64,000 bases of DNA from Dehalococcoidia bacterium (GCA_965219325.1 OZ244723.1:1981803-2045802); one strand, 5' to 3'; shown: positions 2,158 to 11,321, counted from the stretch's first letter. Program-made: numbers and translations. Notes: generated by a model from the letters alone, not told the origin.

Positions 2158-3039
2158 TTACGCGACCTCGATGAGCAGCCGGCAGTGATCGCTTGCGCCC
2201 CACTCTTCAACAGAGTTCATGGCCCGCACCCTGATGCCCTCGTGAAAGCCGCGGGAGGCGAAAACGTAATCGAGTTGATTGTTGCTTGTCGTCTCCGGCA
2301 TCTTGCCGGGGAGGCAGTATGTGACGACGTTGCGGGAGTCGACGGGCTCCCCCGTAGCCAGTGTCTCTGCCTGTCGACCATTCGGTGCCTGCGGCCCCAT
2401 GAACTCCAGCCCGATGGTGGTCATTCTCTCGAAAACGGACCGGTATCGTGACTCCCAGTAGGGATCGCCGCCATCGCCATAGCCGTGCGCGATGTTGAGA
2501 TCGCCGGCGGCCAGTATGCGATGGGTCTGCGGATTCTCGTGGCCAATGAAGGCCGAGAGGTCAGAGACGATTCGGTGGACGGAAGAGTCCGCGTAGCCAA
2601 AGCTCCACGCCGTCTTGACGCTTGGATGCGACCCGATCCAACGACCGTACATGGAGACGGCGATGAACGGTCCGGCCGAGCCGTCACGAGGCGTTATGCG
2701 GGCCGCCGCGATCGTCCCGATTCCGCTCACGGCGATCTCGTCACACTCTGTCCAACCTATCGGACTGACCTGCTTGAACCACTCAACTTCGACCCGGTCC
2801 GATAGCTTCACCACTATCGGCCAGCGGTCGTACAGTTTCGGGTACCGGTCTTCGAACCAGCGCGAGTTCCAGACGTGTGAATCCCAGTGCTCCACAGGGC
2901 CGATATCGACTCTATTGGCCACATCGGACGGCGGGCTGACCGCCTCCTGCAGCAGCGCGACGTCGGCGTCCACCTCCAGTAGCTGGCGCCACGGCTCAAT
3001 ACGCTTGGCGATGTTCCAGCTCACTATCCTTACGGCCAA
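2158..3039 (-). CDS. Endonuclease/exonuclease/phosphatase (EEP) family protein 1
   Basis: Catalytic motifs IVSWNI, ALLQEA, AGDLN, QLDYVF, SDHC. Confidence 0.9.
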   Translation of the reverse strand: MAVRIVSWNIAKRIEPWRQLLEVDADVALLQEAVSPPSDVANRVDIGPVEHWDSHVWNSRWFEDRYPKLYDRWPIVVKLSDRVEVEWFKQVSPIGWTECDEIAVSGIGTIAAARITPRDGSAGPFIAVSMYGRWIGSHPSVKTAWSFGYADSSVHRIVSDLSAFIGHENPQTHRILAAGDLNIAHGYGDGGDPYWESRYRSVFERMTTIGLEFMGPQAPNGRQAETLATGEPVDSRNVVTYCLPGKMPETTSNNQLDYVFASRGFHEGIRVRAMNSVEEWGASDHCRLLIEVA

Positions 3040-3271
3040 TTTATCCTCCGAGATCGTTCTGTGGGGGCATGTCAGTCTAGGATGTCACTTCTGATCGTAG
3101 GACGATTCCAGCACGCTGACTACGTACCATGTGTCCTCTTCGTTGCCTGAACCGACCAAGCAGGTCCACTCCTACTCTCGTAGGTCGGCGGGTCGCGTCG
3201 ACATCTTGGTGATCCGGGTCATGGCTTTTTTCTCCTGTCCTGATACGCAAGAAGGGCCGCATACATTGACG

Positions 3272-3316
3272 GGTAGGGGAGGCCGCCGACTCATGTCTGA
3301 CGACCTCCCCCGTACC
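3272..3316 (-). terminator. GC hairpin downstream of helicase-tail relic 1
   Basis: Imperfect stem ggtaggggagg...cctcccccgtacc immediately after the stop, followed on the minus strand by gtatgcggcccttctt. Confidence 0.5.
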
Positions 3317-3324
3317 TCTGCTAT

Positions 3325-3645
3325 CTAGCGCCCCGCTCCGGCCAACACGGCCTCTCGCTCCCGCTCAAGGGTCAGCGCCCACTCGAACAGAGATGGTGAT
3401 GTGGGCTGGGGCTTCCGGCTGCGGCGCCTGGGCTTGACCTGCTCCGCGGCCATGAACTCGGCCCATGAGAACAGCGACAGCGGCGGCTTGTCGGCACCGT
3501 CATGATGCCCATTGCCGTTGTGTCCATTGACCGGGACCAGTTCGACCTTGGGCCCGATGTCGGGGCCGTCATGATGACCGTTGCCGTTGACCTCCACGGT
3601 TGACGCCTCTACATCGGCCGGCCTCCAGTCCATGTCCACCGGGGA
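3325..3645 (-). pseudogene. Orphan C-terminal ~105 aa of the ICE SF2 helicase (relic 1)
   Basis: DWRPADVE..VNGNG..SLFSWAEFMAAE..KPQP.SLFEWAL..ERERE.V.GAGR aligns to the C-terminus of 22671-25007; all helicase motifs absent. Confidence 0.85.
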
Positions 3646-3689
3646 ACGTGCCACACCCTGCCAGCAGCCGTCCACACCCGGTATCCCTC

Positions 3690-8628: not shown

Positions 8629-8660
8629 CTACGCTCCCTGCGGGCTTGGCCGCCGCAGCT

Positions 8661-9485
8661 TCACGAGACCTCGATTTCGATGCGACAGTGATCGCTCGGA
8701 CCCCAAAGTTCTGGTTCGTTCAGAGCGCTCACGCGCACGGAATCGGCCATTCCCTTGGACGCGAATACGAAGTCCAACTGGCGGGTAGCAGTGGACGGGC
8801 CCTGGCCGATCCGGTAGTAAGAGGGGACATTCCTGCTGTCGTCGGGTAGCTCATCCGGCCAGGGATCCGCCCGCCGCCCGTTGGGGGCCTGTGGACCTAC
8901 GAAAGCGAGTCCCAGCGCCTCCATCCTGTCAAACACTGTTCCGTACCGCCCAGCCCAATATTCGCTGCCGCCATCTCCATATCCCCGAAGTATGTTGAGA
9001 TCGCCGGCAGCGAGGATCCGGTGTCCGCCCTGACTCCCGATGAACGTGGAGATATCCGAGATCACGCGGTGGGCAGACGCGTCCGAGACGATCCAGCTGC
9101 TGCCAGAAGAGGCGTGAGGCCTCTCCCACAGTGCGTACATGGAAATCGCCACGAATGGCTCGATCCCGGGAGCCGACACCTGCGCCGCGGCTACTGTCCC
9201 CGGACGGCTGACGGCGAACTCCCCCGAGCGCACCTCCTCCATTGCCTTGGGTATAATCCATGCAACCTCCACTCGGTCGGAGAGCCTTGCTATCGCCGTC
9301 CTGCGGGTCCAACCGGTCCATCCAACGGTTGTCCAGGGGGCGGGATCGACGTCAATCCGCCTGCTTAGCTCAACCGGAGGGCGATCCGCCTCCTGCAGGA
9401 GAGCGACATCGGCGTCCATCGCTATCAGACAATGCCAGGGATCCGTCCTGCCGTCGATGTTCCAGGAGACGATTCTCATTCCCAC
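8661..9485 (-). CDS. EEP family protein 3 (paralog of 1 and 4)
   Basis: IVSWNI, DADVALLQEA, ILAAGDLN, QLDFVFAS, WGPSDHC. Confidence 0.9.
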   Translation of the reverse strand: MGMRIVSWNIDGRTDPWHCLIAMDADVALLQEADRPPVELSRRIDVDPAPWTTVGWTGWTRRTAIARLSDRVEVAWIIPKAMEEVRSGEFAVSRPGTVAAAQVSAPGIEPFVAISMYALWERPHASSGSSWIVSDASAHRVISDISTFIGSQGGHRILAAGDLNILRGYGDGGSEYWAGRYGTVFDRMEALGLAFVGPQAPNGRRADPWPDELPDDSRNVPSYYRIGQGPSTATRQLDFVFASKGMADSVRVSALNEPELWGPSDHCRIEIEVS

Positions 9486-9518
9486 TGAATTGACCTTAGC
9501 CCGCTCCCCAAAATGCTA

Positions 9519-10255
9519 ATTGGGTGGGGACGGCGCCGCCAATGGCCGGACTGCTCCGGCTGGTCTGCGCCATCCCCCCCACCGAACCGGACGTGCGACT
9601 TTCACCGCATCCGGCTCTCCACCAGATGGGCTGGACCAAGGTCGGGAACATCGGCTTTTCCGTCATCGCAGTCGGGTGCATACATCCCTTCTCCGGCGTA
9701 GTTCGCTTCGTTCCACACCCATCTGACTGCCCACCTTCGCCATGTGGACGGCTTTCCCGTCCGCGGACTACTACGCGGGCTCTGCCACCCGTCCAGCATT
9801 GGCCGAAGGCTGGCCTGTTCCGTCGCCGGAGAGCCGGACGAGCTTCCCAAGTTCACAAAGGTTGCGTCTTCATATCGCCTTAGGTCCTGCCTCTACGCCT
9901 GGCCTGGCTCTCTGCCGCGCTCGTCATCGGAGGATGCCGGTCAGAGGGAGTACGGCATCCCTGCCCTGACAGGGCTATCTCTGCAGCTGGAAGACAGAGA
10001 CTCCGATGACTCCACCCTCGCCCTACCGTAAGCGGGTGGTTACATTTACGACGCTTCAAACAGCAGTTCCTTTCGTGACCGTAACGACACTCTGGCTAGC
10101 AGTGCGCGGCCTGGCAGGGTGGCCGCCGCCACATTGTCGGGAAGGCTTCAGACACGGTTCTGCCTCTGGTCCCCATGCCTGCTTCCCTGGCCACCGGCCC
10201 ACTCCTGGCCGGGATCCCCATCGGGAACGTTCAACCTGTGCGCTTCTTGGCGCAC
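9519..10255 (-). ncRNA. ORF-less group II intron (complete ribozyme, ~737 nt)
   Basis: 5' GTGCG at 10255; DIII-like gggaaagccgtccacatggcgaagg; ~100-nt DIV closed by cagatggg/cccatctg; DV gagccggatgcggtgaaagtcgcacgtccggttc; DVI with bulged A; ends cccaAT at 9519; EBS1/EBS2 match the upstream flank. Confidence 0.9.
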
Positions 10256-10481
10256 TCCAGCCGGTATGTTAGTACGCCGGACCTGTGTAAGGGTGAATGA
10301 CTCCGAGGAATAGCCGCACCTTTAGGCTGCAGGATGCGGCGTTATGCTTGAGCAGGCCCGCGGCGTCTCGACGTGGCGGAAATGGCGGCCATCGGCCTGA
10401 TTTCAGGCCCGTTCTCCCGAATACTCTGCCGGAAATGGTCACGGAGCAGTCACTCACGCTGTGTGCCAGTCAAGGAGAGAA

Positions 10482-11321
10482 ATGCCCACAAATATAGTTA
10501 GCTGGAACATCGCCAGGCGAAGAAAGCCGTGGCGTCAGCTGTTGCAGATGGACGCGGACGTGGCGCTGCTGCAGGAGGCGGGGCGAATCCCGGAGGATGT
10601 CTCCGAATCAATCGAGGTCGGCGACGACGAGCTCAGGGACTCGGATGCCTATGACCGATTCCCCATGGTAGCGAGGCTGTCCGATCGGGTCTCCGTTGAA
10701 TGGTTCAACCCGGCAGACCCTACACGCGAGACAGGTAGTGACGATTTCACCGTCAGTGACATCGGCACCATAGCCGCCGCCCGGATTGTTCCCAATGATT
10801 CGCCCCCGTTCATGGTGTTTTCCATGTATGCCCGCTGGGAACGGCCGCACCCATCGACCGGGACCAAGTGGTTTGTTGGCTATGCCGATGGCTCGGCTCA
10901 TCGCATGATCTCGGATCTATCGACGTTCATCGGCAGCGAGGACCTGAGCACACACCGTATCCTGGCAGCGGGTGACCTCAACCAGATCTACGGCGCCACC
11001 GACGACAACCGGTCTGCGCTCCCGGCCCGTGATCGCAGTGTCATGGACCGAATGGATGCGATTGGCCTGGAGTTCCTGGGGCCGCAGCACCCGGCGGGAA
11101 GGCGTGCGGACCCAACTCCCCAGGGCCTGCCGCCGGATACAAGGACCGTGCCCACCTGGCATAGCACCGTTGACTCTCCGGCGACCGCCCAGATTCAGCT
11201 GGACTATGTGTTCGCCTCCTGGGGATTTCACCGGGACGTTTCGGTGCGCGCGATGAACTCCGTAAAAGAGTGGGGTGCCAGCGATCACTGCCGTCTGCTG
11301 GTCGAGGTCGCCGGCAAGTGA
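10482..11321 (+). CDS. EEP family protein 4 (paralog of 1 and 3)
   Basis: SD aaggag; IVSWNI, DADVALLQEA, ILAAGDLN, QLDYVFAS, WGASDHC. Confidence 0.9.
   Translation: MPTNIVSWNIARRRKPWRQLLQMDADVALLQEAGRIPEDVSESIEVGDDELRDSDAYDRFPMVARLSDRVSVEWFNPADPTRETGSDDFTVSDIGTIAAARIVPNDSPPFMVFSMYARWERPHPSTGTKWFVGYADGSAHRMISDLSTFIGSEDLSTHRILAAGDLNQIYGATDDNRSALPARDRSVMDRMDAIGLEFLGPQHPAGRRADPTPQGLPPDTRTVPTWHSTVDSPATAQIQLDYVFASWGFHRDVSVRAMNSVKEWGASDHCRLLVEVAGK

Follow-up and report, generated by a model that had tools for sequence, protein, structure and literature searches.

We examined a 64,000-nucleotide stretch (the window) at positions 1981803-2045802 of the single-contig, 3.25 Mb genome (62.7% GC) of an uncultured, sponge-symbiotic Dehalococcoidia bacterium, in which four genes for proteins of the endonuclease/exonuclease/phosphatase (EEP) superfamily lie close together in the variable arm of an integrative and conjugative element (ICE). 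Positions refer to the window unless they are given as genome positions. Three of the genes, EEP1, EEP2, and EEP3, represent one divergent subfamily (hereafter the family), and the fourth, EEPd, represents another. Very probably, the four products are cytoplasmic EEP phosphodiesterases that are intact, maintained by selection, and carried as accessory, mobile ICE cargo.

Four EEP genes and their predicted fold

The genes are listed below; helicase relic 2 is one of two remnants of the ICE helicase gene that are described in the last section.

2158..3039, minus strand: EEP1, 293 residues from a TTG start; divergent EEP subfamily; first gene past helicase relic 2
7241..7963, minus strand: EEPd, 240 residues; second, more canonical EEP family; PF03372, 2e-17
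8661..9485, minus strand: EEP2, 274 residues, probable ATG start at 9479; EEP1 subfamily
10482..11321, plus strand: EEP3, open reading frame (ORF) 10461-11321, 279 residues from the ATG; EEP1 subfamily, mixed-phylum clade

A sequence-only reading of the window had described four EEP-family genes within 9 kb, three of them from one distinctive subfamily, and the ORFs and their translations confirmed the genes at these positions. EEP1, EEP2, and EEP3 exhibited pairwise identities of 50-57%, and all three contain the motifs IVSWNI..PW..L..DADVALLQEA, ILAAGDLN, GL.F.GPQ.P.GR, QLD.VFAS, and WG.SDHCR; the gene at 7241 is the more distant EEP that it had been taken for, with 25% identity of EEPd to the other three. 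Across the four genes and across 27 family members, N9, E32, D180, N182, D257, D284, and H285 (EEP1 numbering) were invariant or at least 90% conserved, so the catalytic set is kept in all four genes, as had been proposed. Each protein opens straight into its first beta strand and thus lacks a signal peptide, again in agreement with the earlier description.

Pfam profile Exo_endo_phos (PF03372; gathering score of 24.5 bits) matched EEPd with 63.9 bits, EEP1 with 28.9 bits, and EEP2 with 25.7 bits, and EEP3 gave no match to threshold. The marginal scores of EEP1 and EEP2 and the unmatched EEP3 indicate that the subfamily is a divergent branch of the EEP superfamily. All four genes are intact and under purifying selection, with dN/dS values of 0.14-0.18 among EEP1 copies, 0.15 for EEP2, and 0.19-0.41 for EEPd; the NAD-binding-domain protein encoded between EEP2 and EEPd yielded 0.19-0.43. 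The genome as a whole contains 12 Pfam-EEP matches in its 3.25 Mb, for an expectation of 0.034 per 9.2 kb, and the presence of four EEPs in one such interval (P(≥4) = 5e-8, or ∼2e-5 once corrected for the number of windows) is clustering beyond chance.

The AlphaFold2 (AF2) model of EEP1, built with 27 homologues in the alignment, had a pLDDT of 89.8 and a pTM of 0.91. Comparison with the PDB by Foldseek gave 198 matches at E ≤ 1e-3, and the best 50 were all EEP enzymes. The top matches were, in order, the uridine endonuclease Mth0212 and other ExoIII homologues, the TRAS1 retrotransposon endonuclease, and APE1, with Nocturnin, the sphingomyelinase SmcL, and uncharacterised Bacteroides EEPs further down. 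Template modeling (TM) scores against solved EEPs were 0.5-0.6 on the query, at 13-17% identity, and the TRAS1 endonuclease match reached 0.71 on the target length. A profile search of PDB sequences produced weak matches only to the N- and C-terminal motifs of ExoIII enzymes, and comparison with viral structures yielded generic EEP matches only. Apart from the fusion described below, the longer family members carried no added domain beyond the EEP. We regard the EEP fold and active site as certain.

The closest resemblance is to ExoIII, APE1, and Mth0212. These enzymes have the alpha/beta sandwich of four layers and the catalytic constellation of the EEP1 model, with the C-terminal SDH motif as part of it, and they provide its best structural matches (Foldseek E ∼1e-10) and its sole sequence-profile matches in the PDB. 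Inserts at residues ∼45-70 and ∼216-256 and the conserved motifs GPQ.P.GR and WG.SDHC set the subfamily apart from them.

Copies, distribution, and phylogeny

Within this genome the subfamily is represented by six full copies and two fragments, and the EEPd family by four copies. All ten full copies are interspersed with helicase relics in arms that lie downstream of ICE helicases, and the ICE copies of this genome differ in carrying the genes, which belong to the variable arm and not to the conserved backbone. Defense-type neighbors are found at all three genomic sites that bear the genes: GmrSD, REase-ARP, NERD-helicase, HNH, and MmeI-like proteins in the window, REase-ARP, GmrSD_N-Schlafen, and DUF4268 proteins at 1.69 Mb, and McrB with McrC at 1.83 Mb. 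CBS-domain proteins are also encoded nearby at 1.69 Mb.

Two scales of duplication were evident. The segment at 6670-9472, which comprises a helicase relic, EEPd, the NAD-domain gene, and EEP2, has a 2.8-kb duplicate of 84% identity at genome positions 1687123-1689900; the EEP2 copy in it (1689092-1689913) is 86% identical, and the same block minus EEP2 recurs at genome positions 1650166-1651959. EEP1 has two further ∼90% identical copies in the genome, and the homology among these three EEP1-type copies is limited to the ORF and ∼20-27 nt that include the Shine-Dalgarno sequence. As dS between them is only 0.23-0.35, neutral flanks that had been duplicated along with the gene should still align, and the unit that was moved or converted was thus gene-sized. 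No shared flank motif, attC-like site, or terminal repeats were detected in pairwise comparison of the 200-nt flanks, and attC sites between the genes of the islets found in other genomes (see below) were ruled out because an intergenic spacing of 6-20 nt leaves no room for them.

In sequence databases the subfamily forms 2,915 clusters at 90% identity by a word-indexed search, nearly all from metagenome assemblies; a name is attached to few of them and says no more than 'endonuclease/exonuclease/phosphatase family protein' or 'hypothetical protein'. When 50%-identity representatives were searched exhaustively, 167 clusters had E ≤ 1e-30, and the number rose to 608 for E ≤ 1e-10. The EEPd family is likewise large and unnamed (1,242 clusters). 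More than 570 loci in species-representative genomes encode a relative of the subfamily. The best 80 genomic relatives occur in metagenome-assembled genomes of Dehalococcoidia and other Chloroflexota, Acidimicrobiia (including Ca. Poriferisodalis, Spongiisocius, and Poriferisocius), Acidobacteriota, Latescibacterota, and Spirochaetia, and identity across phyla is ∼60%. Many of the bins have the prefixes RHO, IRC, COS, and APA, which match sponge species sampled in PMC8163846, from which we infer the hosts of these bins. Our literature search found no paper on the subfamily or on EEP genes in sponge symbionts.

Occurrence among close relatives is patchy. The family was present in 13 of 61 related genomes (8 of 48 genera), with 0-4 copies even within the genus, and, across the phylum, in 28 of 401 genomes (9 of 216 genera); several of the copies elsewhere are stop-bearing pseudogenes or fragments. 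We obtained no tblastn match among 72,556 plasmids (PLSDB) or 50,697 phage genomes (INPHARED), and the 2.9 million contigs of IMG/VR contained two distant matches (36% identity); a phage or plasmid family was therefore rejected.

A maximum-likelihood tree of 80 sequences resolved two clades, both well supported. EEP1 and EEP2 are on separate branches of the first, whose members are almost exclusively Chloroflexota, and the other, which includes EEP3, has five phyla intermixed on short branches; the tree requires at least 10 phylum changes, compared to a minimum of 4. The positions of EEP1, EEP2, and EEP3 in three separate lineages indicate three separate acquisitions rather than duplication in place. 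These results agree with two proposals of the sequence-only reading, namely that related elements carried such genes repeatedly (the three window copies correspond to three tree lineages) and that the family is mobile (patchy occurrence, pseudogenes, and mixed phyla in the tree).

The opposite possibility, also raised at that stage, is that the genes are nothing more than ExoIII-type repair genes, passed on vertically and duplicated locally. Their EEP fold and the weak profile matches to the N- and C-terminal motifs of ExoIII would be expected of such genes; however, EEP1-3 had no match to the Xth model of NCBIfam (TIGR00633; equivalog cut-off of 99 bits), to which EEPd scored 25.2 bits, and a separate canonical EEP gene (111.8 bits) is located at genome positions 3109079-3109804. 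ExoIII, APE1, and Mth0212 represent a single-copy core gene, whereas the subfamily is accessory, multi-copy, and horizontally mobile. Given the restriction of the family to 8 of 48 related genera, the mixing of phyla, the three lineages in the window, and the location in ICE cargo, a vertical ExoIII origin is effectively refuted.

The linkage of the genes to ICE arms in this genome allows another explanation, in which they serve the conjugative element itself as DNA-repair or DNA-processing helpers that, for example, trim or repair transferred DNA or, in an anti-restriction role, mend restriction damage once the DNA has entered. The fold is ExoIII/APE-like, the element has recombination genes of its own (Rad52, RadC, and an exonuclease), and family and ICE helicase co-occur across the 61 relatives (10 genomes with both, 3 and 7 with a single one, and 41 with neither; p = 4e-5). 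On the other side, no ICE helicase was found within 10 kb of the family gene at any foreign locus, so that the helicase was rejected as a general neighbor, and in the relatives the family usually lies >100 kb from any ICE helicase. By comparison of the coordinates listed for the relatives, an EEP between an ICE helicase and one of its relics was seen outside this genome only in the same-genus relative G003. Carriage in the variable arm rather than the backbone, its variation among ICE copies, and the failure to find the family in the 72,556 known plasmids also argue against a helper function, which we consider very unlikely.

Genomic partners and predicted role

Neighboring ORFs were clustered for 80 loci, and the components were then mapped by tblastn on 82 loci. 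The subfamily gene was a singleton in 51 of these (62%), in unrelated contexts, and in the other 31 (38%) it belonged to a co-oriented islet with intergenic spacing of 6-80 nt and a gene order that was permuted between loci. The islet partners were EEPd (17 loci, directly upstream), a protein of ∼350 residues termed X350 (∼18 loci), and a second family member (6 loci); in three loci of one subclade, X350 and the EEP share one open frame as an in-frame fusion. The stand-alone family that had been proposed thus fits the larger share of loci, and it does not describe the 38% with EEPd, the X350-type partner, or a second copy, nor the three fusions. X350 possesses invariant E20, D70, and E85-x-K87, as in PD-(D/E)xK nucleases; it had no Pfam match, and its AF2 model (pLDDT of 84.6) gave no significant PDB match, only weak matches to YaeQ. 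X350 was not found in the genome of the window.

No conserved small partner of the toxin-immunity kind was apparent, as the neighbor clusters consisted of EEPd, X350, and one 108-residue gene that occurs at 11 loci and is confined to one syntenic clade. Neither the 3HCDH-like NAD-domain gene nor the HNH gene was near the family in the 80 other loci, and for both of them a fixed operon was rejected on this basis. The window block, in which a relic, EEPd, and the NAD-domain gene accompany EEP2, represents one arrangement among several, and the NAD-domain gene is not a general partner: elsewhere the subfamily gene occurs by itself or has EEPd as its sole companion, and in other genomes it is found with the PD-(D/E)xK-like protein. 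The nearest non-family neighbors encode Na/H exchangers, thiamine pyrophosphate (TPP) enzymes, dehydrogenases, PIN toxins, Fic, REase-ARP, and transposase helix-turn-helix (HTH) proteins, with no neighbor family exceeding 4 of the 149 flanking genes; in two annotated foreign examples the gene lies amid metabolic genes. At one locus of a Dehalococcoidia relative (L092:6169-10927), three EEP genes and an X350-type gene lie within 5 kb, between succinyl-CoA ligase/2-oxoacid oxidoreductase genes and a gene for a 1803-residue protein, with a GPP34 gene nearby.

Enrichment of defense genes around the family had been named as a check. Every copy in this genome does lie among restriction-type genes, and the enrichment was weak outside; from the heterogeneous neighbors and the few PADLOC matches, we judge the defense-island association to be strong in this genome and weak to moderate elsewhere. 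None of the four EEP proteins matched PADLOC-DB 2.0 at E ≤ 0.01, and a known defense system was rejected because neither PADLOC nor NCBIfam gave a match.

The changing neighborhoods and the gene-sized unit of transfer are also what a selfish mobile nuclease would produce, in which the EEP cuts DNA to spread or retain its own gene without benefit to the host, in the manner of free-standing homing endonuclease genes or the APE-type endonucleases of non-LTR (long terminal repeat) retrotransposons. DNA cutting by the product that moves or anchors an ORF-sized gene would explain the ORF-precise boundaries, the changing neighbors, and the multi-copy cycle of gain and decay in the phyla of sponge symbionts. 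The homology of the three ∼90% copies stops ∼20 nt from the ORF even though dS is 0.23-0.35, the nearest relatives (86-88% identity) occupy differing contexts, singletons wedged among unrelated genes account for 62% of the loci, and the family, multi-copy and patchy in its occurrence, often includes pseudogenes and fragments. The TRAS1 endonuclease ranks with the best fold matches (TM of 0.71, target length); like the endonuclease domains of TRAS1, L1, and R1Bm, which are compact EEP nucleases serving a mobile element, the subfamily genes act as mobile multi-copy units. Unlike those domains, the family is bacterial, has no fused or adjoining reverse transcriptase, and has no known target-site specificity. 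The EEP proteins are single-domain, no reverse transcriptase is encoded among the window neighbors, and the adjoining group II intron is ORF-less. Moreover, we looked for a conserved insertion site, a target-site duplication, and a flanking repeat and found none; the syntenic position is conserved in Acidimicrobiia and some Dehalococcoidia, which resembles vertical descent within clades, and purifying selection is equally compatible with a role that benefits the host. We consider the selfish explanation unlikely, and it is quite unlikely that the subfamily constitutes a bacterial class of EEP endonuclease genes that stand free and propagate themselves; if it did, these would be a prokaryotic counterpart, on the EEP fold, of APE-type retrotransposon endonucleases or homing endonucleases.

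Another explanation is that the enzymes are niche-adaptive phosphatases or phosphodiesterases for a small molecule or lipid of importance within sponges, and that they spread among the symbiont phyla by aiding symbiosis rather than defense. Candidate substrates are NADP(H), as for Nocturnin, inositol phosphates, and sphingomyelin. The best 80 relatives are all from metagenome-assembled genomes of the phyla named above, many with bin names of sponge hosts, and are ∼60% identical across phyla; Nocturnin and SmcL are among the fold matches, and EEP2 and EEPd flank a NAD-binding-domain protein under purifying selection in this genome. Proteins without a signal peptide or membrane anchor are, however, poorly placed to reach host lipids, the top fold matches are DNA enzymes, and the genes that recur beside the family encode a second EEP and a PD-(D/E)xK-like protein, with no metabolic genes among them. 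The NAD-domain neighbor is limited to the lineage of this genome, and the high copy number, diversification, and decay are atypical of a metabolic enzyme. This function is improbable on balance.

Four features point to DNA cutting in defense or inter-element conflict as the most likely function. The closest folds belong to enzymes of DNA, a second EEP and a nuclease-like protein recur as partners, paralogues that have diversified are retained next to one another, and type IV restriction enzymes are the company of the genes in this genome. In the explanation that we favor, the four genes encode small, cytoplasmic, metal-dependent phosphodiesterases of the EEP fold, three from the accessory family and one from the EEPd family. 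The genes are cargo of the helicase-end variable arm, which has accreted blocks with helicase 3'-end relics between them and whose remainder is occupied by modification-dependent and other restriction-type nucleases; the family itself moves horizontally as a gene-sized unit among bacterial phyla living in sponges, either singly or in islets with EEPd and the PD-(D/E)xK-like protein. The ExoIII/APE-type active site (N9, E32, Y131, D180, N182, D257, D284, and H285) is predicted to cut a DNA phosphodiester bond, and the most plausible action is to nick or trim DNA that is foreign, damaged, or modified, either singly or together with a second nuclease. Abasic or modified phage DNA and nucleotide signals had been suggested as possible substrates in the sequence-only reading. 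Such activity could serve defense or competition among mobile elements, and diversification of the paralogues could provide differing specificities. We put this DNA-directed function forward tentatively, at slightly less than even odds; for the overall reading, the description together with the predicted role in defense or conflict, we estimate a probability of about 0.5.

Several observations weigh against this proposal. A TM of 0.55-0.6 with 13-17% identity to any solved EEP is too remote for the substrate class to be read from the fold, and Nocturnin (a NADP(H) phosphatase) and the sphingomyelinase are themselves among the fold matches. The EEPs received no PADLOC, NCBIfam, or PHROG-type assignment, most foreign copies stand alone next to metabolic or housekeeping genes unrelated to them, and a handful of the 149 flanking genes outside this genome match PADLOC models at E ≤ 1e-10. 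The resemblance of X350 to PD-(D/E)xK nucleases is at the level of a sequence motif. Finally, an unregulated cytoplasmic DNase without an immunity partner would require narrow specificity.

While the EEP fold is well known, this branch of it is without a name, a family model, or a solved relative closer than a TM of 0.6, and it amounts to thousands of sequence clusters exchanged among at least five phyla that share one habitat. Its repeated capture in ICE cargo beside type IV restriction enzymes and the partnerships with a second EEP and a PD-(D/E)xK-like protein make it a candidate for an undescribed nuclease-based module of defense or inter-element conflict among uncultured symbionts. If directed at DNA lesions or modifications, the enzymes would be a new type of effector in bacterial immunity; if selfish, they would be a new kind of mobile nuclease gene.

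The cargo arm and the conjugative element

The other features of the arm, and the backbone of the element, are as follows.

3..1514, plus strand: MmeI-like methyltransferase/target-recognition protein, 5' end outside the window
1589..2101, minus strand: HNH endonuclease (PF01844, 3.9e-6), in the orientation of EEP1 and 56 nt downstream of it; present once in the genome
3183..3675, minus strand: helicase 3'-end relic 2, ICE helicase residues ∼690-794 and 3' flank, with a 116-residue ORF at 3325-3675
6619..7272, minus strand: helicase 3'-end relic 1, a 217-residue ORF equivalent to ICE helicase residues 580-794; overlaps the end of EEPd
8053..8628, minus strand: truncated 3-hydroxyacyl-CoA-dehydrogenase-like NAD-binding protein, 191 residues, between EEP2 and EEPd (PF02737, 4.7e-36)
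9519..10266 (nominal), minus strand: ORF-less group II intron, of which only domain V/VI (9519-9619) is confirmed (Rfam RF00029, 64.4 bits)
11525..13275, plus strand: NERD and UvrD-type helicase, frameshifted into three pieces (PADLOC RTasNERD-Hel, 1e-27)
13389..14432, plus strand: REase-ARP/PD-(D/E)xK restriction-type endonuclease (PF22558, 2.6e-40)
14780..15331, minus strand: T5orf172/MUG113 (GIY-YIG-like) domain protein
15495..17384, plus strand: GmrSD type IV restriction enzyme (PF03235, 1.3e-33; PF07510, 1.4e-21)
22594..46080, no single strand assigned: conjugative-element backbone, with a type IV secretion system (T4SS), relaxase, and methylase-helicase gene set

The backbone encodes the SNF2-like ICE helicase (22671-25058, minus strand), a DUF6094 methylase, DUF2958, RadC, Rad52, TrbL/VirB6, a VirB4/TraC-type ATPase, a coupling protein, and a Replic_Relax relaxase; it spans ∼24 kb and is present in 5-6 copies in the genome at ∼80% nucleotide identity. 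The genome contains five full ICE helicase genes and about a dozen relics, every one of which lies downstream of a full copy. The ORFs at 6619-7272 and 3325-3675 were ruled out as separate genes, as they match the C-terminus of the ICE helicase. These helicase 3'-end relics identify the initial 22.6 kb of the window as the variable arm of the element, divided into blocks. The block adjoining the full-length helicase holds EEPd, EEP2, and EEP3, and EEP1 lies past relic 2. The four genes had been assigned to different helicase-bounded cargo blocks; the bounding by helicase 3' relics was borne out, and the number of blocks that hold them is two, not four.

The arm resembles the cargo hotspots of SXT/R391-type ICEs in having variable cargo dominated by restriction and defense genes beside a conserved backbone, and, as in the recombination scars of tandem ICEs, the relics of a backbone gene mark past recombination between related elements. 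Unlike SXT/R391 ICEs, this element has a monoderm-type T4SS, a Replic_Relax relaxase, a Rad52 annealase, and a Chloroflexota host, and EEP genes of this subfamily are not known as cargo of SXT-type ICEs.

Further details were noted for individual cargo genes. The 191-residue protein comprises only the NAD-binding domain, which retains GxGxxG; judged from its sequence, the catalytic His of HFFNP is apparently missing. Four copies of equal length are present in the genome. The frameshifted NERD/UvrD helicase has an intact, 86% identical paralogue of 592 residues at genome positions 1702908-1704683. Between the two helicase relics are genes at 3690-5357 (minus strand) and 5526-6449 (plus strand) with no family match, one of them secreted or lipoprotein-like, and a 307-residue gene of this interval has copies of 82-86% identity at 920-926 kb of the genome. 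The group II intron separates EEP2 from EEP3, with a 93% identical copy at genome positions 791855-792240 and a partial copy at window positions ∼58015-58217.

Other ICE copies of the genome bear similar marks. In copies P and A (genome positions 1384652-1384828 and ∼1160600), a helicase C-terminal relic directly follows the relaxase stop codon in the orientation of the relaxase, inverted with respect to the helicase of the element itself, and may represent the junction of recombined or tandem elements. Just outside the relaxase end of copy B, genome positions 1741856-1741969 hold a 38-codon fragment similar to the C-terminus of EEP3, which suggests that an EEP gene was truncated at the ICE boundary. 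A tRNA-Thr(CGU) gene (32049-32124, minus strand) is located inside a segment of the ICE backbone that is conserved among the ICE copies.

Sequences of the window were also present in sponge metagenome runs, which are stored as contigs and showed presence and repeat abundance rather than expression. The helicase-tail relic (6671-7337) attained 2000-5000x summed word depth in four runs, compared to ∼5-20x for the flanking genes; such extreme depth indicates that the 3' end of the ICE helicase occurs in very many elements or organisms of the same community. The group II intron segment reached a summed depth of 300-1600x in the sponge metagenome contigs, against ∼5-20x for the neighboring genes.

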